Below are positions 44,204 to 52,608 of a stretch of 64,000 nucleotides of DNA, piece after piece. The stretch covers positions 1-64,000 of the forward strand of contig JABCTZ010000003.1 in assembly GCA_018238155.1 (NCBI GenBank), written 5' to 3'. This stretch comes from Candidatus Heimdallarchaeota archaeon (lineage in GTDB: Archaea > Asgardarchaeota > Heimdallarchaeia > JABLTI01). The stretch's first letter is position 1. The number at the start of each line of letters is the position of its first letter. The position numbers and the translations under genes were made by a program. The notes beneath the pieces were generated by a model that saw only the letters and a program-made list of their open reading frames with translations, searched no databases and was not told the DNA's origin.

Positions 44204-44749
44204 ATGATTCCAATTTTTTCACTAACCAAAATACTCGATTCTCTAGTTCTTATGCAAATAGTACTAGAGGGATCTATGCATGGGTATGCTTTGACTTCTT
44301 CTATAGAGGAAAAATTTGGTTGGAAACCAAGTCAAACAGCGGTCTATAATACACTTCGCTCTCTGGAGAACGAAAACATGGTTTCTGTTGAAGAAAGAAT
44401 CGAAAAAGGACGTGCTCAGAAAGTTTATTCAATAACAGAACGGGGACGACAATCCTTCGAAGAGACTCGAAAGGAAATGAAAAAACATGTAATGAAGAAT
44501 TTTTCACAATTCCTTTCATTTGCTCAGCTGGTGAGTGAAATAGAGAATTTGGAGGAATCAGAAATTTTTCAAAAGAGAATTTACGATATATCAGAAAATT
44601 TGAGGAGCATTTATCTTCTGATATTTCTGCTAACAAAAGAAGCTCCTGTGGAAGCTCAGATATTTATTGAGGATACTCTTACTTCCCTCAAAAATCTAGC
44701 TGAAAAATTAGATATTAAATTCCAAGAAGAGGAAAATACTGTTGAATGA
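44204..44749 (+). CDS. PadR family transcriptional regulator
   Basis: HGY.L, VY..L..LE and K.Y.IT..G motifs; directly upstream of the ABC exporter. Confidence 0.88.
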   Translation: MIPIFSLTKILDSLVLMQIVLEGSMHGYALTSSIEEKFGWKPSQTAVYNTLRSLENENMVSVEERIEKGRAQKVYSITERGRQSFEETRKEMKKHVMKNFSQFLSFAQLVSEIENLEESEIFQKRIYDISENLRSIYLLIFLLTKEAPVEAQIFIEDTLTSLKNLAEKLDIKFQEEENTVE

Positions 44750-44776
44750 ATATAATAAAATTGGAGTAAAAAATCT

Positions 44777-47017
44777 ATGATTAAATTATTAAAATATACA
44801 AAACCATATCTGCTCTTGGTTCTTTTTTCCATTGGCTTATTAGCTGCACAAGCAAACCTAGACTTAGCTTTACCTGATTATCTTTCCGACATAATTGATA
44901 CCGGAATTCAACAAGGTGGTGTTGAAAGCGCAGTCCCAATTGCATTTCGTCAAAGTGAGTTGGACCGAATTTTTATTTTCACACCCTCGGATAATCATAC
45001 CACCGTGCTTGCAGAATATACTTTAGTAGATGAAAACTCGTCAGATTATGATACTTATATTGATGATTACCCCGTACTTGAGAATGAGTCAATATTAGTT
45101 TTAAATAAAATTAAACAAGACAAGAAAGATGAGCTTCATCAGATACTAGTAGAACCTACTGTAGTTGTTTTTACTCTGAAACAAGCACTGGCTAATCCGG
45201 AAAATGCGACTATGGTATGGATTGCCCTGAATATTTCAGATCCTACAGGTCTTACTGAGGAAATTTTCTTTAGTATTTTAGAAGGCTTGCCGCTTGCTAA
45301 TCGAATGCTTCTTTCCCAAGCAATCACCAAGAATTTCAAAGCAATAGGAGAGACCATGCTTGACCAAATCGCTGCTCTTGCCGTGGGGTTAGAATATGAA
45401 ATAATAGGGTTAGATATCGATAAATTACAGAGTAATTATATCTTCAAAGCTGGGGGATTGATGCTACTAATGACTCTGCTTTCTGTGCTTTGTACGGTCA
45501 CGGTAAGCTTTCTTGCATCAAGAACGGCTGCAGGGATGGCTCGAGATATTCGTAGTGATTTATTCAAAAAAGTTGAAAACTTTTCAAGTAACGAATTTGA
45601 TACTTTTTCAACCGCTTCATTAATCACTCGTTCTACCAACGATGTTACTCAAATTCAATCAGTTACTGTTATGATAATTCGAATGGTTTTCTATGCACCT
45701 ATCTTAGGTGTAGGAGGAATACTTCGAGCATTGGATAAAAGTTCCTCAATGTGGTGGCTTATTGCTATTGCAGTTGGTGTATTGATATTGTTAGTACTGA
45801 TTGTCTTTTTCATTGCTGTGCCAAAATTCAACAAAATGCAAGCTCTAACAGATCGTATCAATTTAGTTGCTCGTGAAAATCTAATCGGTATGCTGGTTAT
45901 TCGCGCATTTAATAGAGAAAAAATTGAAGAAAAGCGATTTGACAACGCAAACAAAGATTTGACATCTGTTATATTGTTTATCAATAGAGTGATGGTTATT
46001 CTGATGCCAATTATGATGCTAATTATGAATGGTCTAATGATCAGCATTATTTGGATAGGCTCACATGAAGTCGATGCAGCCGCTATGCAAGTAGGTGATA
46101 TGATGGCATTCATGCAGTACGCAATGTTGATTGTATTTGCATTTCTGATGTTAACAATGATGTTTATCATTTTGCCTAGAGCCGTGGTATCCGGAAGACG
46201 TATCAACGAAGTGTTAGTCACAAAGCCAACAATCACGGACCCAGAGGACCCAAAAATCTTTTCTGAATCTTTCAAAGGAACAATCGAATTCCGAAATGTT
46301 TCGTTCAAATATCCGGGTGCAAAGAAAAATGTTTTACAGAACATTACTTTTACTGCCCAACCTGGTCAAACGACTGCACTTATTGGGGCAACCGGTTCAG
46401 GAAAATCAACTGTTATAAATCTAATTCCAAGATTCTATGATGTAACTTCAGGTTCAATTCGGATTGATGGAATAGACATTAGGAAAGTGTCTCAACATGA
46501 TTTAAGGGACAAGATAGGGTATGTTCCTCAAAAGAGTTCTTTATTCTCAGGTACTATTGGAAGCAATTTGCTTTTTGCAAATGAAGATGCGACAGATGAA
46601 GAACTTAAATCTGCATTAGAAATTGCACAAGCAACAGAGTTTGTTTTTGACAAATCTAATGGATTGGATCGTGAAATTGCCCAAGGTGGAATGAATGTTT
46701 CAGGCGGGCAAAAACAACGTCTTTCTATTGCCCGTGCATTGGTTAAGAAACCACCAATATACATTTTTGATGATAGCGTTTCTGCTCTAGACTTTAAAAC
46801 TGATGCTGCTTTACGCAGAGCTCTCAAGGAAAAGACTGGAAATAGTACAGTACTAATGGTCACACAACGTGTTTCCACAATAAAAAATGCAGAGCAAATT
46901 CTAGTGATAGATGAAGGAAAAATTGTTAATAAAGGCACTCATGATGAATTGATGAAAACATGTGATATCTACAAAGAAATTGCTGTTTCACAACTTGAAT
47001 TGGAGGAATTTGCTTGA
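44777..47017 (+). CDS. Heterodimeric ABC exporter, subunit 1 (degenerate site, large extracellular loop)
   Basis: TMD+NBD; GATGSGKS, SGGQ, DDSVSALD and Q in the switch. Confidence 0.92.
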   Translation: MIKLLKYTKPYLLLVLFSIGLLAAQANLDLALPDYLSDIIDTGIQQGGVESAVPIAFRQSELDRIFIFTPSDNHTTVLAEYTLVDENSSDYDTYIDDYPVLENESILVLNKIKQDKKDELHQILVEPTVVVFTLKQALANPENATMVWIALNISDPTGLTEEIFFSILEGLPLANRMLLSQAITKNFKAIGETMLDQIAALAVGLEYEIIGLDIDKLQSNYIFKAGGLMLLMTLLSVLCTVTVSFLASRTAAGMARDIRSDLFKKVENFSSNEFDTFSTASLITRSTNDVTQIQSVTVMIIRMVFYAPILGVGGILRALDKSSSMWWLIAIAVGVLILLVLIVFFIAVPKFNKMQALTDRINLVARENLIGMLVIRAFNREKIEEKRFDNANKDLTSVILFINRVMVILMPIMMLIMNGLMISIIWIGSHEVDAAAMQVGDMMAFMQYAMLIVFAFLMLTMMFIILPRAVVSGRRINEVLVTKPTITDPEDPKIFSESFKGTIEFRNVSFKYPGAKKNVLQNITFTAQPGQTTALIGATGSGKSTVINLIPRFYDVTSGSIRIDGIDIRKVSQHDLRDKIGYVPQKSSLFSGTIGSNLLFANEDATDEELKSALEIAQATEFVFDKSNGLDREIAQGGMNVSGGQKQRLSIARALVKKPPIYIFDDSVSALDFKTDAALRRALKEKTGNSTVLMVTQRVSTIKNAEQILVIDEGKIVNKGTHDELMKTCDIYKEIAVSQLELEEFA

Positions 47018-48906
47018 GTCAAAATGGCACCCAAAAACAACCCAAAAGTAGACCTAGACGTACAGGTCCAATGGGTAGTATGATGCAAGGCGGCGAAAAA
47101 GCAAAAGATTTCAAAGGAACAATGGCTAAGCTGATCAGATATTTAGGTAAATATAGAATAATAATTATTATTGCTATTCTAATTGCTATAGCTTCTACAA
47201 CTGCAAATATTATTGGTCCTAAAATCCTCGGAAGAGCTACTACTGAGCTTTTTGAAGGATTGATGGCTTCTATTCGAGGGACAGGTTCAGTTGATTTTGC
47301 TTATATTGGTAGAATAATGTTGATAACTTTATCACTCTATGTTGTATCTGCACTATTGTCATACATCCAGGGTTGGATTATGGCTAAAGTATCGACAGAT
47401 ATATCCTATCGTTTACGTAAAGACGTTTCAGAAAAAATGAATCGAATGAAACTCAAATACTATGATAGTACTACCCATGGTGAAATACTTTCAAGAATAA
47501 CTAATGATGTAGACACGATCAACCAAACTTTGAGTCAAAGTATCACAATGATTATGTCATCTATAGTCACTATAATTGGTGTACTTGTGATGATGTTTAC
47601 TATCAGCTGGAAGCTAACTTTGGTCGTTATGGCAGTAATTCCACTATCTGGTTTGATGATAGCTTTTATCGTAAAAAGATCACAAAAACATTTCAATCAA
47701 CAACAAGAGTACTTGGGTCATGTGAATAGTCACGTAGAAGAGATGTTCGGTGGTCATTTAATTGTGAAAGCATTTAATGGTGAAGAACAGAGCCTCAAAA
47801 CATTCTCAAAGTACAACTATACTCTACACAAATCTGCATGGAAATCACAGTTCTTTTCAGGACTAATGATGCCAATGATGACTTTTATTGGTAATTTGGG
47901 TTATGTTGCTGTCGCAATCTTTGGCGGTTATTTAACTAGCCAAGGCACCATCACGATAGGTGATGTTCAAGCTTTCATTCAATATGTGCGTTCATTCACT
48001 CGACCTCTTGGTCAGATTGCCAGTGCATCCAATGTTCTACAACAAACCGCAGCAGCTTCAGAAAGAGTGTTTGCATTTCTAGAAGAATCTGAAGAAATTG
48101 CTGATACCACTGAACCGAAAAAATTTGAAAATGTTACCGGTCTTGTAGAATTTAGAAATGTTAATTTCGGTTATCACAAAGATAAGACAATTATCAGTAA
48201 TTTTTCAGCTATCGCAAAACCAGGACAGAAAATAGCTTTAGTTGGTCCTACTGGCGCCGGAAAAACTACCATGGTTAAACTTCTAATGCGTTTTTATGAT
48301 GTGAACGATGGAGCGATATTAGTAGATGGGATCGATATTCGAGAGATAACACGTTATGACTTGCGTGATAATTTCGGTATGGTTCTACAAGATACATGGT
48401 TGTTTAATGGAACAATATTGGAGAATATTCGCTACGGACGTCTAAATGCTACAGATAAAGAAGTCAAAGCAGCTGCAAAAGCAGCTCATGTTGACAAGTT
48501 CGTTCATGCACTGCCTGGTGGATTTGACATGGAAATTAATGAAGAAGTGACAAATATCTCACAAGGACAGAAACAACTGCTAACTATTGCAAGAGCTGTA
48601 TTAGCGGATCCACCTATCCTAATATTAGATGAAGCAACTAGTTCAGTTGACACTCGAACTGAAATTCTCATCCAGAGAGCAATGGATGACTTAATGAAGA
48701 ATAGAACAAGTTTTGTTATCGCTCATCGTTTGTCCACAATCCGAAATGCTGATCTAATTCTCGTAATGAATGAAGGAGATATTGTAGAACAAGGTACTCA
48801 TAAAGAATTACTAGCGAAAGATGGATTTTATGCAGAACTACACAACAGCCAATTTGATGTCATTAACAATAATTCACAACAACCAGTGCAACAGTCAAAC
48901 GATTAG
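47014..48906 (+). CDS. Heterodimeric ABC exporter, subunit 2
   Basis: GPTGAGKT, SQGQ, LDEATSSVD and AHRL motifs. Confidence 0.92.
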   Translation: MSQNGTQKQPKSRPRRTGPMGSMMQGGEKAKDFKGTMAKLIRYLGKYRIIIIIAILIAIASTTANIIGPKILGRATTELFEGLMASIRGTGSVDFAYIGRIMLITLSLYVVSALLSYIQGWIMAKVSTDISYRLRKDVSEKMNRMKLKYYDSTTHGEILSRITNDVDTINQTLSQSITMIMSSIVTIIGVLVMMFTISWKLTLVVMAVIPLSGLMIAFIVKRSQKHFNQQQEYLGHVNSHVEEMFGGHLIVKAFNGEEQSLKTFSKYNYTLHKSAWKSQFFSGLMMPMMTFIGNLGYVAVAIFGGYLTSQGTITIGDVQAFIQYVRSFTRPLGQIASASNVLQQTAAASERVFAFLEESEEIADTTEPKKFENVTGLVEFRNVNFGYHKDKTIISNFSAIAKPGQKIALVGPTGAGKTTMVKLLMRFYDVNDGAILVDGIDIREITRYDLRDNFGMVLQDTWLFNGTILENIRYGRLNATDKEVKAAAKAAHVDKFVHALPGGFDMEINEEVTNISQGQKQLLTIARAVLADPPILILDEATSSVDTRTEILIQRAMDDLMKNRTSFVIAHRLSTIRNADLILVMNEGDIVEQGTHKELLAKDGFYAELHNSQFDVINNNSQQPVQQSND

Positions 48907-48989: not shown

Positions 48990-50081
48990 TTATCTCCAAT
49001 CAAAATAAACCGTTTCTACTTTCTCAGGTATTGGCACATTATTCATATTGAAAAAATCAAGGTTGATTTTTTTATCAAAGAAAAAGAATTTAGCATCTTT
49101 CAAAGGTTTCATATCAAAATATGGTATGTATGGTGTTTGTAATCCATACCAACCATGTTCTTCAGAAGTTTGGCAAAGATAGTTTGCTAAATCTCCCGCT
49201 TCTTTTGTTGTCAATCGATGAATATGAACCATATCAAGCCATCCGAATGGCAATCTATTTCCCATACCTGCTAGGATAAACTCCCAAGCTAACATGAATC
49301 CTTTTACTTTTCCATTATCATCTTCATGAACAACACAATTGACACAAGGGTTACTTAGTGTCCATTTCAAGTCAGCAAGTTCAGGAACTATGGATAACTC
49401 ATTGCGACTCACTTGTTCCTGGATGATTTCAAACATATCTTGGATATCTTTTTCTTGATATTTTCTTATATATTTAGAATCGATTTTTTTGTATTTTTGA
49501 AACATTTTAAAAACTAATTTTTCATACCATCGCAATTTTACTACTTTGGAAACTTCATTCACATTAAAGGCTTTTATTACAAATTGAGTTAGTTCGATAA
49601 TTCTTTGGAATGGTATTTTCAAATCTCTGGCAACAGCAGAGGAAACATCTATTCCATGATGTTGAGGTTCATGAAAAGAAAACCCTCCGTCATACCCTAA
49701 TTTGTTGCCAGTTTCAAATAGCTTCTTTCCCATACCTTTGGCTAATCCTTTCCTTTGGTGTTGGGAATGAACACTTAACCAAGATGGTATAGCAAATTTG
49801 TAGGTTTTACCTAGAATTGAAAGTTTTCGAGGTATCCCTCCTAAGAATCCCACAATTTTCCCTGTTGGTTTATGAGTTGCTTTTATGAATAGATCTTTGT
49901 CAATAGATGGGGCACCATACATCATGTTGAACGTTTCTTCAGAAAAAGCGACTGATGCTCCTTCTTGAATTGCTGTTTCATCACTAAAGAAAGCTTGAGT
50001 GATTAGTTTTGCAAGCTCATCGAAATTATCTTTTTCAATCGTAAATTGTTCAATAATATAATCACTAATATCATTGGTCAT
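48990..50081 (-). CDS. Tandem GNAT acyltransferase resembling N-myristoyltransferase
   Basis: VGFLGGIP, LSVH..HQRKGLA, second-half IR.Y..KDI...V.ED.NG.V.GF and an NMT-like C-terminus. Confidence 0.7.
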   Translation of the reverse strand: MTNDISDYIIEQFTIEKDNFDELAKLITQAFFSDETAIQEGASVAFSEETFNMMYGAPSIDKDLFIKATHKPTGKIVGFLGGIPRKLSILGKTYKFAIPSWLSVHSQHQRKGLAKGMGKKLFETGNKLGYDGGFSFHEPQHHGIDVSSAVARDLKIPFQRIIELTQFVIKAFNVNEVSKVVKLRWYEKLVFKMFQKYKKIDSKYIRKYQEKDIQDMFEIIQEQVSRNELSIVPELADLKWTLSNPCVNCVVHEDDNGKVKGFMLAWEFILAGMGNRLPFGWLDMVHIHRLTTKEAGDLANYLCQTSEEHGWYGLQTPYIPYFDMKPLKDAKFFFFDKKINLDFFNMNNVPIPEKVETVYFDWR

Positions 50082-50216
50082 TTCTTTAATCTCCTACTAA
50101 TGAGTAATAATGTTAATTGACAGTTAGAATATTGTCGGAACTTTTTCAACAATCACTTGAAAATATATAAACTTTTTACTAAAAAACCACTAACATCAAT
50201 GAAATTTACTAAAAAA

Positions 50217-51485
50217 TTAGCTGTAATATTTATTCATTACATATTCATAGGCTTTTTTCTCAAGGTTCCGGAAATAGCTACTCTTTCCCTGTTCTACAAA
50301 TTCTTGAATAATTGATCTAACTAATTTATTTGTAGAGATTTCATTAAACTCATCCTCTACCAATAGGCCAAAATCTCGAGCTGAATTTTCTACTAAATGA
50401 GCTGCCCTGTTAAAATCTTGACTCTCAAATTTCGAATCATGAATGACATTTCTTTTAATATAAGAAATCATCAACAAGAGTTCAGCAATTTTTAAGTTGG
50501 ATTCTATTCTCCCTTCTGGTACATATCTATCAGCAACGAAGGAAATTCCTGACTCATAACCATATTTGTAACCTTTGATTGCCGGCCAAATAAGGCTCAA
50601 CTTCTTAAATTGGTCAATATCAAAACTACCATTTTTGTTCTCATTCCCATAAAGCTGCTTATATTTTGGATAAATGTCAGGATAATTTGTTCTTATAGTT
50701 TCCATAAACTCGTTTTTATTTCTACCTGGTTTCAAAGTTAATCCTGCACAATTGACAAACTGTGCATCTACTTCCTTTGCCTTTTGATAAATTGAATTAA
50801 CATTTTCTTCTGTATCACCAATAAATGGAAGACAAGGATAAAAATAGATCCCGGAAGGGATGCCTTCTTTCCGAAGAATTCTGATTGCTTCAAATCGTTC
50901 TTTTGAAGAACTTGCTTTAGGTTCGAATATTTTACGTGCTCGTTCATCTGCTAATGTAATGGTAAAATTCACACAAGCATACGATTCTTTATTGATCTTT
51001 TTTATCAGATCAATATCTCTGAGAACGAGTTTGTTTTTCGTGAGAATCCAAAGTGGTAATTGATAATCATAAACTATTTCAAGCAATTTACGAGTCATCT
51101 TTACTTCTTTTTCAGCCGGTTGATAAACATCACACACTCCCCCGCCTATAGCAATTATCGATTTAGGTTTACAATCTGATTTAACATCTCTCCTCAATAC
51201 GGGAAAAAAATCTGTGATTGAAAATTGCTTTTTGCTATGAACTGATTTAAAACCTTGTTTTTTCAAGAATTTTATCAATAGTTCTGGAGCATTCGTTTTC
51301 ACTCGTATTCGTTCTCCAAAATCTTCATGCATATAGTACTGTTCTGATTTTCCATCACAGTAGACACAATCATGATAACATCCTTGATATGGGTTGAGAT
51401 ATGTTTCTGCCCAAGAAAAAATCGATACTCCTCCCTGTCGTACTAGGGATTTTGCTTCATAATTTTCTATTTTCATAACAAGCAA
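50217..51485 (-). CDS. Radical SAM protein, SPL-like (COG1533)
   Basis: NPY.GC.H.C.YC, D.YQP.E, TR..L, TK and EP......RF motifs. Confidence 0.88.
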   Translation of the reverse strand: MLVMKIENYEAKSLVRQGGVSIFSWAETYLNPYQGCYHDCVYCDGKSEQYYMHEDFGERIRVKTNAPELLIKFLKKQGFKSVHSKKQFSITDFFPVLRRDVKSDCKPKSIIAIGGGVCDVYQPAEKEVKMTRKLLEIVYDYQLPLWILTKNKLVLRDIDLIKKINKESYACVNFTITLADERARKIFEPKASSSKERFEAIRILRKEGIPSGIYFYPCLPFIGDTEENVNSIYQKAKEVDAQFVNCAGLTLKPGRNKNEFMETIRTNYPDIYPKYKQLYGNENKNGSFDIDQFKKLSLIWPAIKGYKYGYESGISFVADRYVPEGRIESNLKIAELLLMISYIKRNVIHDSKFESQDFNRAAHLVENSARDFGLLVEDEFNEISTNKLVRSIIQEFVEQGKSSYFRNLEKKAYEYVMNKYYS

Positions 51486-51594: not shown

Positions 51595-52608
51595 TTACTT
51601 CTTCTCTGCTTGTTTAACAACTTCTTCTGGGAGATGTATAGCAAATAAACATCTAGAATCACCATCTAGAATTGTTTCTAATACTTCAACTTCAATGGGT
51701 TGATTCAATATTACATCCCATTGATTCTTATAGTAACCTGCACTGCATTTGCAAAACTTTGAAGGCACATCTATTTCTCCCGTCTTCAGCGCTTCTCTAA
51801 CCCACGCACAATGACAATAGAAATATTTTTTCATATTTTCATCTGTTTCATTTAGGGATTTCTTTGTCAAATAGGGGATTTTCTCAGTGTAAAGAATATT
51901 ACCTTTTCTTACTCCACCTTCAATTTGTGGATTATTCTTCACATGCTTTACTACTTCATCATCAACTTCTTGAGTATAAAATAACGTTTGATCATCTCGA
52001 TGCTTTTCTAAAATCTTGATAAAATTGGTATGTCTTTCAGCTAGATATTCATCAATATTCTTTGCCTCAAGGAACTTTTCTCTTTGCCTGTTATAGCTTT
52101 CCTTTGGAATACCATGAAGATTACTAACTAATATTTTATGACAAGTTTTTTCATCTAGATTTTCTTCAAGACGTTGAATAACTTTCTTTGTTATCACTGG
52201 TTTTTTCACTGAAAGTGTGCCTAGAACTGGGAAATCAATCCCTTGCAAAATTTTTTTGCTTTTTTCTTCTCCAACAACTTCAGATAATTCTCTTGTTAAA
52301 TTTACAAGAACATCACTACCGTCTAATAATTCATATAATGCGATAAGCATATTTTCGTTCCCTAAGAAACCACAATATCTGATCAAAGCATAAAAAGTCT
52401 CTTTACTATTATTGCCGGTATCAATTAGATGTTGAGCATATTTATGAACGTCTTTCTCATTAACAGTATCAATATTCCTTCGAATATCGTGCAGAAAGTT
52501 ATTGAAGTGTTCTATCTTCTCTATAGTCTCTTCAATTATTTCTTTCTTATACTCCTTCTCTTCACAGAATTTTCTAAAATCGTCAATATTCATTTCTAAT
52601 ATTTCCAT
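51595..52608 (-). CDS. DUF6144/V4R-like Cys-rich protein
   Basis: YCHC.W, FC.CSAG and V...ETIL.GD..C.F.I motifs. Confidence 0.7.
   Translation of the reverse strand: MEILEMNIDDFRKFCEEKEYKKEIIEETIEKIEHFNNFLHDIRRNIDTVNEKDVHKYAQHLIDTGNNSKETFYALIRYCGFLGNENMLIALYELLDGSDVLVNLTRELSEVVGEEKSKKILQGIDFPVLGTLSVKKPVITKKVIQRLEENLDEKTCHKILVSNLHGIPKESYNRQREKFLEAKNIDEYLAERHTNFIKILEKHRDDQTLFYTQEVDDEVVKHVKNNPQIEGGVRKGNILYTEKIPYLTKKSLNETDENMKKYFYCHCAWVREALKTGEIDVPSKFCKCSAGYYKNQWDVILNQPIEVEVLETILDGDSRCLFAIHLPEEVVKQAEKK

Follow-up and report, generated by a model that had tools for sequence, protein, structure and literature searches.

A prokaryotic NMT-type tandem GNAT protein in Asgard archaea, distantly homologous to eukaryotic N-myristoyltransferase

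N-myristoylation is treated as a hallmark of eukaryotes that mirrors eukaryogenesis. A gene on a contig of Candidatus Heimdallarchaeota archaeon (GenBank assembly GCA_018238155.1, contig JABCTZ010000003.1, positions 1 to 64,000; this whole stretch of 64,000 nucleotides is hereafter the window) raises the question of whether an archaeal protein can be related to N-myristoyltransferase (NMT) and, if so, what it might acylate. The original prediction, made from the sequence alone, had read the gene product as colinear with NMT along its whole length, with a shared C-terminal end point, and had suggested an ancestral protein N-acylation system with small GTPases as possible substrates. The open reading frame (ORF) lies exactly where it had been placed, on the minus strand (the prediction specified none), and all peptide strings quoted in support are present in its translation.

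48990..50081, minus strand: coding sequence of the NMT-type tandem-GNAT acyltransferase, taken from the ORF list and its translation; 363 amino acids plus a TAA stop, uninterrupted

The ratio of nonsynonymous to synonymous substitution rates (dN/dS) between this gene and its closest relatives is 0.07-0.22, which is indicative of purifying selection and thus of a functional gene. A protein database search finds 87 close homologs, the nearest being up to 92 % identical and derived from metagenome-assembled genomes (MAGs) of Heimdallarchaeota/Heimdallarchaeaceae, where they are labelled only as 'GNAT family N-acetyltransferase'. The NCBIfam search finds no family that matches the 363-residue protein, and no Pfam or NCBIfam model describes this Asgard NMT-type family. 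The comparisons below establish the protein as a genuine but distant homolog of eukaryotic NMT, with homology spanning both lobes and with NMT as its closest known relative in sequence and fold.

Sequence and structural similarity to eukaryotic NMT

In the Pfam search, the NMT N-terminal domain (PF01233) is matched over residues 16-117 with 32.0 bits against a curated cut-off of 25 (E 1.3e-7), and this match is present in most of the 87 homologs too. The best Pfam match is to Acetyltransf_9 (PF13527; 42.4 bits against a cut-off of 25, 8e-11, residues 15-124), a generic GNAT-domain model that is matched also by a true NMT (P0235). Single-sequence phmmer searches against all PDB chains found 13 matches at E<0.1, all 13 of them NMTs, with a best value of 2e-5. 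Using hmmsearch, a profile of 34 family members finds NMT in the PDB at 2.3e-14 over two colinear stretches, one in each lobe, as compared to 1.6e-3 for the best non-NMT chain and about 1 for Eis. The same profile, searched against 1.8 billion protein representatives, retrieves NMTs with both PF01233 and PF02799 at E 1e-11 to 1e-6; these were called true on the basis of their own matches to the two models (1e-46 to 1e-80). Further, hhalign aligns the family profile with 15 bona fide NMTs at 99.5 % probability (E 3.2e-23) over 231 columns, covering query residues 16-266 and thereby running into the C-terminal lobe as far as residue 266. The proposed whole-length colinearity is thus confirmed by phmmer, hmmsearch and hhalign for three of its four blocks (FDELAKLITQAFFSD…FSEETF…P; KIVGFLGGIP…SWLSVH…R..LA; IRKYQEKDI…EDDNGKVKGF), well beyond what chance would give, and for the fourth it is recovered by superposition of a predicted structure and not by sequence.

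That structure is an AF2 model built from the family alignment, with a predicted local distance difference test score (pLDDT) of 92.1 and a predicted template modelling score (pTM) of 0.89. Foldseek searches initiated with the model against the PDB returned NMTs as all of the best 50 matches, over the full length and with E values of about 1e-21 and template modelling (TM) scores of 0.72-0.79 (around 0.76). VIA-align, a structural search independent of Foldseek, superimposes the model on NMTs with Z scores of 31.6-33.4 over 328-337 residues and a root-mean-square deviation (rmsd) of 2.6-3.0; for two NMT cluster representatives the Z scores are 31.8 and 29.9, over 335 and 327 residues with an rmsd of 2.8 and 3.0. 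The next best tandem GNATs are MAB_4324 (22.9), Eis (20.2), a clavulanate-pathway enzyme (19.2), MshD (15.4) and HisAT (14.7). Eis chains (targets of 388-409 amino acids) superimpose with Z scores of 17-20, an rmsd of 5.4-6.9 and about 100 unmatched target residues, and the HisAT chain (9emd_A; rmsd 4.9) covers model residues 2-348 only, leaving out the tail. FemABX is not among the 50 structural matches listed, which is no proof of difference. The outcome that would have spoken against the original prediction, a best structural match to Fem, Eis or a generic GNAT, is therefore not what is seen, NMT scoring 32-33 against 20 for Eis and 19-23 for other tandem GNATs.

The C-terminus deserves particular attention, as NMT uses its terminal carboxylate as catalytic base (from the NMT literature, for which PMC12219266 gives a summary). 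In the superpositions, model residue 363 falls on the terminal residue of the human (496), yeast (455), C. albicans (451), A. fumigatus (492), L. major (421) and P. vivax (410) NMTs, and with the human deltaC3 truncation, which ends at residue 493, the alignment ends with 360 on 493. The pairing in six species, together with that in deltaC3, indicates that the tails are superposed in register, and the shared end point is upheld in the predicted model (pLDDT 88 for residues 351-360 and 68 for 361-363). At the opposite end, the structural alignments set in between model residues 1 and 8, in most cases at residue 3, opposite human 151, yeast 74 and L. major 51, and only about 7 residues precede the first strand of the AF2 model.

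Conserved residues and comparison with other tandem GNATs

The features of the protein, all on the minus strand, are as follows.

49566..50081, minus strand: N-terminal GNAT lobe, about residues 1-172, predicted to be acyl-CoA-binding and catalytic on the basis of PF13527, PF01233, the alignment with yeast NMT 89-196 and AF2 secondary structure
49830..49853, minus strand: strand V77-G-F-L-G-G-I-P84, equivalent to NMT 'VGFISAIP' (yeast V-A-F-I-S-A-I-P) in the profile and hhalign alignments
49776..49781, minus strand: W101-L102, equivalent to yeast NMT F170-L171 by residue alignment; putative oxyanion-hole beta-bulge
49740..49757, minus strand: GNAT motif A loop (Q/R-x-x-G-x-G/A), Q109-R-K-G112-L-A114, predicted to bind pyrophosphate; read from the sequence and aligned to NMT R-S-K-R-L-T/A
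49629..49676, minus strand: family-specific insert, residues 136-151, F-H-E138-P-Q-H-H142-G143-I-D145…, at an hhalign gap in NMT
48993..49565, minus strand: C-terminal degenerate GNAT lobe, about residues 173-363, predicted to bind the acceptor; hhalign alignment to residue 266, whole lobe superposable on NMT
48993..49010, minus strand: C-terminal tail V358-Y-F-D-W-R363-COOH, predicted to enter the active site like the catalytic C-terminus of NMT

Conservation was counted on a MAFFT alignment of NMTs with the core (40 rows) and the shell (74 rows) of the family; with the family profile, the core comprises proteins at E<1e-96 and the shell comprises proteins of 330-410 amino acids at E 1e-28 to 1e-6. 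The numbering of the equivalent yeast NMT residues was verified on chain 2p6e_A. Columns common to core, shell and NMT are P58, V77/G78/F79, (W/F)101-L102, V104-H105, R/Q109, A114, R206, D212 and F332. For example, V77/G78/F79 are conserved at 97-100 % in the core, 63-79 % in the shell and 58-87 % in NMT, and F332 at 87 %, 91 % and 79 %, respectively. The segment S100-W101-L102-S-V-H105 aligns with yeast N169-F170-L171-C-V-H174 (NMT columns F 91 % and L 91 %), where, according to the NMT literature, the backbone amides of F170-L171 form the oxyanion hole at the beta-bulge. As compared to the NMT consensus I-N-F-L-C-V-H-K of this strand, the aromatic-Leu pair and V-H are kept, Asn is replaced by Ser, Ala or Gly, and the flanking E-I is replaced by I-P. 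The N-lobe has an intact GNAT CoA-binding motif A (Q109-x-x-G112-x-A114). The insert consists of 16-17 residues at the site of the NMT 'Y-T-A-G', where the MAFFT columns are 95 % gap in NMT; position 138 is Glu or Asp in 100 % of the core and 68 % of the shell, G143 is found in 100 % of the core, and E138 could possibly act as an alternative general base.

The end column of the alignment is fixed in 40/40 core and 69/74 shell sequences. All 40 core members, the bacterial ones included, end in …[FL]-x-W-R-stop (R363 100 %, W362 97 %), and shell members ending in the same column usually have …Y-x-D/E-x-R/K. Upstream of the tail, a comparison of the NMT consensus LKFxxGxGxLxYYLYN with the archaeal AKFFFFDKKINLDFFN leaves only K-F in common.

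Taken with eukaryotic NMT (EC 2.3.1.97; PF01233 and PF02799; yeast Nmt1p, human NMT1/2), the archaeal protein shares a tandem GNAT architecture with an active N-lobe and a degenerate C-lobe, colinearity over residues 16-266, the VGF(I/L)xxIP strand, the (F/W)-L of the putative beta-bulge strand followed by V-H, an R206/D212 pair at the start of the C-lobe, the K-F332 site and a C-terminus in register with the catalytic end. It differs from NMT in an N-terminus that is shorter by about 35-40 residues (the model starts at human residue 151), in having no PF02799 match and no GxG, in the insert with E138/H142/G143/D145 at Y-T-A-G, in a motif A of canonical GNAT type, in an invariant terminal W-R where that of NMT varies, and in belonging to a prokaryotic, patchily distributed clade. 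With the Eis/Acetyltransf_9-type tandem GNATs (MAB_4324, the clavulanate-pathway enzyme, MshD) it shares the PF13527 match on the N-lobe and the tandem GNAT fold, and with Eis an active N-lobe; however, the Z scores for these are 15-23 against 32-33 for NMT and none of them ends with an active-site tail. Eis has in addition a third C-terminal domain, forms hexamers and acetylates aminoglycosides as well as proteins; neither the three-domain architecture nor a closest likeness to Eis is seen in the archaeal protein. Human HisAT/NAT16 and the archaeal Ta0821-type proteins are likewise double GNATs with an active N-lobe, and HisAT can hold long acyl chains, but in this type a beta-hairpin Trp is supplied from the second lobe and the C-terminus stops after the last strand, whereas the archaeal protein is of the NMT type (Z 14.7 to HisAT).

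The view of NMT as eukaryotic only, from which the original prediction set out, is no longer quite true. NMT-type double-GNAT predicted structures were found by structure searches in archaea and bacteria in a 2025 paper on HisAT/NAT16 (PMC12219266), and its Supplementary Table 8 gives examples from Thorarchaeota (A0A3L6J856), Euryarchaeota (A0A2E6C328) and Halorubrum (A0A6G2HH32). That group was delineated as double GNATs with a C-terminus reaching the active site, an arrangement that the predicted archaeal model appears to have as well. The Asgard-centred clade, its sequence homology to NMT, the W-R terminus, the paralogs and the distribution are not defined there, and the Thorarchaeota entry is a possible member of the clade. 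A literature search found no paper on the Asgard-centred clade, on its relationship to NMT at the level of sequence or on the invariant W-R with which its members end.

Distribution, phylogeny and genomic setting

Matches to the protein are found in 64/400 genomes of the host phylum. In some families all or nearly all genomes have the core gene (11/11, 27/31, 11/14), and in many others it is absent or weakly matched (0/12, 0/22, 0/19, 4/135). Named carriers are Heimdallarchaeota, Promethearchaeota/Lokiarchaeia, Sigynarchaeum and a Bathyarchaeia contig (L030), the Lokiarchaeia including the cultured Ca. Lokiarchaeum ossiferum (complete genome), Ca. Harpocratesius and a Promethearchaeum sp. Core genes are also present on bacterial contigs of Smithella (160 kb), Leptospirales (187-330 kb), a deltaproteobacterium (5.7 Mb), Fusibacter (1.25 Mb) and Neomarinimicrobiota; those on long bacterial and Bathyarchaeia contigs are 34-53 % identical and all end in …W-R. 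In the tree, the bacterial members are interspersed with Asgard sequences at several separate points, as in the case of the Syntrophaceae with L. ossiferum (support 98), and this scattered nesting points to repeated inter-domain transfer. A second copy is present in the host genome in an unrelated neighbourhood (contig C8:56388-57470, plus strand; 362 amino acids, 48 % identical, ending in …VYFEWR), and the tree places it with another subfamily (P0067/P0084). Genomes of the host genus have as many as four matches, not all of them complete, and one Heimdallarchaeota MAG has three full-length copies and a fragment.

We note that the gene looks inactivated in both closed Heimdallarchaeum genomes: in Ca. 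Heimdallarchaeum aukensis (CP084166, 1010117-1014199) the match has two TAG and one TAA codon in frame, and in Ca. H. endolithica (CP084167) the gene is split into two halves about 2 kb apart.

Beyond the core, several shell proteins pass the PF01233 cut-off, and one of them (P0111, 42 bits) outscores the Asgard protein itself. The taxonomy of the shell rests on gene contexts and ESM-Atlas cluster labels: of three shell contigs that were sampled, two clearly belong to bacteria (Mfd/TRCF, Mur-ligase and DAP epimerase genes; GGDEF), and the ESM-Atlas neighbours fall in clusters that are 87-100 % bacterial, which is a lead only. These neighbours also include PF01233+PF02799 NMT clusters of 332-362 amino acids that are labelled 81-92 % Nucleocytoviricota, and giant viruses may be the source of several of the short 'NMT' representatives that the profile search retrieved.

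In phylogenetic trees, NMT and the core are each monophyletic with supports of 99-100 and sit on long stems. The tree of 138 rows under the site-heterogeneous C20 mixture model recovers the core and a small clade of prokaryotic shell proteins as sister groups (support 95), with NMT outside. With 55 rows, a grouping of core and NMT has a support of 53 under LG+G4, and a careful C20 search yields a star backbone, 22 % of the bootstrap trees containing this grouping. About 15 further prokaryotic lineages branch off the same poorly supported backbone as the Asgard-centred clade and eukaryotic NMT, so that an Asgard origin of NMT is neither supported nor rejected. The suggestion of an ancestral system is accordingly not borne out, given the share of bootstrap trees that unite core and NMT, a clade that is patchy within Asgard archaea and shared with bacteria, and a family that is largely bacterial.

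The surroundings of the gene in the window are as follows.

50091..50094, minus strand: Shine-Dalgarno-like GGAG, 9 nt upstream of the ATG; putative, read from the sequence
50161..50172, minus strand: candidate archaeal TATA-like box TTTATATATTT, read from the sequence, in the A/T-rich 135-nt spacer
50217-51485 of the window, minus strand: radical-SAM protein of 422 amino acids with CxxxCxxC near its N-terminus, upstream of the NMT-type gene and on the same strand
51595-52608 of the window, minus strand: protein of 337 amino acids with weak DUF6144 and integrase-SAM-like matches, upstream and on the same strand
44204-48906 of the window, plus strand: PadR-family regulator and, after it, two ABC exporter genes that overlap (746 and 630 amino acids, with fused transmembrane and nucleotide-binding domains), convergent on the NMT-type gene

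The 135-nt spacer separates the NMT-type ORF from the upstream radical-SAM gene, and the TATA-like box in it may be due to chance because the genome is A/T-rich. Synteny of the radical-SAM and DUF6144-like pair with the NMT-type gene is restricted to some of the Heimdall relatives. The full arrangement (DUF6144-like, radical SAM, NMT-type gene and the convergent ABC-ABC-PadR genes) recurs in one 54 %-identical Heimdall relative (L002), and it is not kept in a 72 %-identical relative nor in Lokiarchaeia. No conserved operon was found around the core genes, the synteny of the window being confined to part of Heimdallarchaeia, and other recurring neighbours (peptidase M28, DinB-like, TPR) are lineage-specific. 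The NMT-type gene is thus a stand-alone gene, as expected of a protein-modifying rather than a pathway enzyme.

Plausible function, alternatives and significance

What does the protein acylate? The best explanation, to which we give an even chance of being right, is that it is a cytosolic acyl-CoA-dependent N-acyltransferase of the NMT-type tandem-GNAT fold, with the alpha-amino group at the N-terminus of a peptide or protein as acceptor and a motif other than the eukaryotic Met-Gly, and jointly with this, that it represents a prokaryotic sister lineage of NMT and not a canonical NMT. A peptide or protein N-terminus is favored as the acceptor because NMT is nearer than any other relative by about 10 Z units, because the tails superpose in register, and because the gene stands alone and has paralogs, the multiplicity of which suggests a diversified acceptor specificity. 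In such an enzyme, acyl-CoA would be bound by the N-lobe and the acceptor amine would be placed in the cleft between this lobe and the degenerate C-lobe. The alpha-carboxylate of R363 would then deprotonate the amine, the conserved E138 of the insert being an alternative base, and the deprotonated amine would attack the thioester, perhaps stabilised by the W101-L102 bulge.

Several observations weigh against this explanation. PF02799, the NMT C-terminal domain, has no match in the protein even at E<=10, and 0/87 homologs have a precomputed match to it. Aligned to the NMT C-terminal profile, the last 105 residues obtain an hhalign probability of 0.6 %, i.e. no sequence similarity; of the fourth colinear block (the C-terminal 100 or so residues), only the Phe of 'KF' is common in its MAFFT column, and its correspondence to NMT is that of the structural superposition. 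The GxG of the NMT 'LKFxxGxG' is not present in the archaeal protein when it is compared with the NMT alignment consensus. A segment equivalent to human NMT1 residues 115-150 or thereabouts, which according to the NMT literature contributes to the myristoyl-CoA site, is missing from the structural alignments, and this argues against assuming myristate. The placement of the C-terminus is taken from a predicted model whose last three residues have a pLDDT of 68. Moreover, the terminal residue is an invariant Arg after Trp, while the terminal side chain of NMT varies; the invariant W-R hints at a role for the side chain, for example in binding a substrate carboxylate, which fits a free amino acid or another small acceptor. 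The wider family is largely bacterial, and we know of no N-terminal fatty acylation of cytosolic proteins in bacteria. In view of the missing PF02799 match, N-terminal segment and GxG signature and of the poorly supported placement in the tree, we file the protein as a prokaryotic NMT-type tandem GNAT and not as an NMT.

A shell member from a bacterial metagenome contig (P0140; L121:5556-11056) has a setting that also counts on this side: its gene has an 8-nt overlap with an esterase/lipase gene and lies downstream of genes for an AMP-binding acyl-activating enzyme, a short-chain dehydrogenase (ketoreductase) and a DUF3108 protein. Being lipid-flavoured, the operon may offer a clue to what the bacterial branch does chemically.

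Since the terminal Arg is invariant and the family is widespread among bacteria, a small-molecule acceptor stays a serious rival. We consider it possible, if on balance doubtful, that the protein acylates the amine of a free amino acid, polyamine, aminosugar or lipid head-group, with the NMT-like fold put to use as in HisAT/NAT16, MshD, Eis and N-acyl-amino-acid synthases, and that R363 binds a carboxylate or phosphate of the substrate. The near-complete invariance of W362-R363 would then be accounted for, E/D138 could serve as a conventional GNAT general base, the operon of P0140 would be in keeping with such chemistry, and there is a precedent in HisAT, a double GNAT that acylates a free amino acid and takes long acyl-CoAs (PMC12219266). 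However, the structural similarity to NMT (Z 32-33) is far above that to HisAT (14.7), MshD (15.4) or Eis (20.2), the in-register C-terminal tail is a hallmark of the NMT type and not of the beta-hairpin HisAT type, and no conserved biosynthetic operon surrounds the core genes.

It is improbable, in our estimate, that the protein is an N-terminal Gly (or Ser) fatty-acyltransferase which lipidates Asgard Arf-like GTPases or other membrane-associating proteins and is the direct ancestor of eukaryotic NMT. By both sequence and fold NMT is its nearest known relative, the C-termini are in the same register, and a clade of core and NMT is not rejected by the trees. The host genome also has candidate substrates: there are 43 PF00025 matches, 14 of them strong, and 10 of these 14 begin with M-S-[FIL]-[FIL]-x-x-L-… (mostly …L-F-[KR]), resembling the amphipathic helix of Arf1 with Ser2 in place of Gly2; one host Arf-like starts with MGILSKLFRK.

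Contig C15:290052-290567, minus strand; C39:62280-62786, minus strand; C29:32667-33179, minus strand; C20:19956-20462, minus strand; C41:74765-75271, plus strand; C17:62400-62915, minus strand: examples of strongly Arf-like genes in the host genome

Two carriers of the gene have Arf-likes with Gly2, namely Ca. L. ossiferum (MGIFSLLRRK) and another genome (G281; MGIFDIFKRK). On the other hand, one Asgard family (f6) has 5-7 strong Arf-likes per genome in 22/22 genomes and the NMT-type gene in 0/22, and two other families without the gene (f7 and f2) have Arf-like N-termini such as MSFLSKLRAKF / MSFISKIKKLW and MGFRDW… / MGRSFSTW…; Heimdallarchaeum keeps such Arf-likes despite its broken gene. 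One possibility is that Ser2 is conserved in Arf-likes owing to N-terminal acetylation after removal of Met. Predictors recognise no myristoylation motif in Asgard Arfs, and mutating Gly2 of one of them left its membrane targeting in yeast unaffected (PMC11914678); HodArfR1 and GerdArfR1 have no Gly2 (bioRxiv 10.1101/2024.02.28.582541). The full-set site-heterogeneous tree, which places the core with a small shell clade and not with NMT, and the lack of a PF02799 match, of the N-terminal segment of NMT and of the GxG motif are also at odds with direct ancestry. As Arf-likes occur both with and without the gene, their co-occurrence gives no support to small GTPases as substrates, in contrast to what had been suggested, and Arf-likes as dedicated substrates are rejected given that identical N-terminal helices occur where the gene is missing; the co-occurrence data are compatible with some Arf-likes possibly being substrates where the enzyme is present. 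ESCRT-III proteins were rejected as substrates too, the host copies starting with MVFGKF… (or MDGKITMVFGKF… from an upstream ATG) and MPKVKNW…, with no Gly2.

We regard it as no less unlikely that the protein is an N-terminal or lysine acetyltransferase which uses acetyl-CoA and no lipid, its likeness to NMT reflecting shared tandem-fold ancestry only: the best Pfam match to a generic acetyltransferase model, a motif A that is more canonically GNAT-type than that of NMT and the missing NMT N-terminal segment speak for it, whereas N-terminal acetylation is already covered in archaea by the much smaller Ard1/NatA-type enzymes and NMT-type enzymes are otherwise the only ones known to have a fixed C-terminal tail. 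To our knowledge, long-chain fatty acyl-CoAs are not major archaeal metabolites, which counts in favor of acetyl-CoA. Their minor place in archaeal metabolism is also argued in PMC4917890.

Taken as a whole, the original interpretation is partly supported. What emerges is a prokaryotic clade, as yet uncharacterised, whose homology to NMT is demonstrated and which has an NMT-type C-terminal tail and is near-universal in some families of the Heimdall and Loki groups. It is one of many deep, largely bacterial lineages with the same architecture and has been exchanged between Asgard archaea and bacteria, which limits what can be claimed for it. Its presence in the cultured Ca. Lokiarchaeum ossiferum makes the question of its function experimentally approachable. 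It appears very unlikely to us that the Asgard-centred clade is the source lineage of eukaryotic NMT and already acylated Gly2 or Ser2 membrane-associating proteins, such as the L. ossiferum Arf-like with the N-terminus quoted above. According to one view, fatty acylation of GTPases originated in the bacterial partner (PMC4917890). If the source-lineage reading were true, NMT-type protein lipidation would predate eukaryogenesis and would have come from the archaeal host and not from the bacterial partner.

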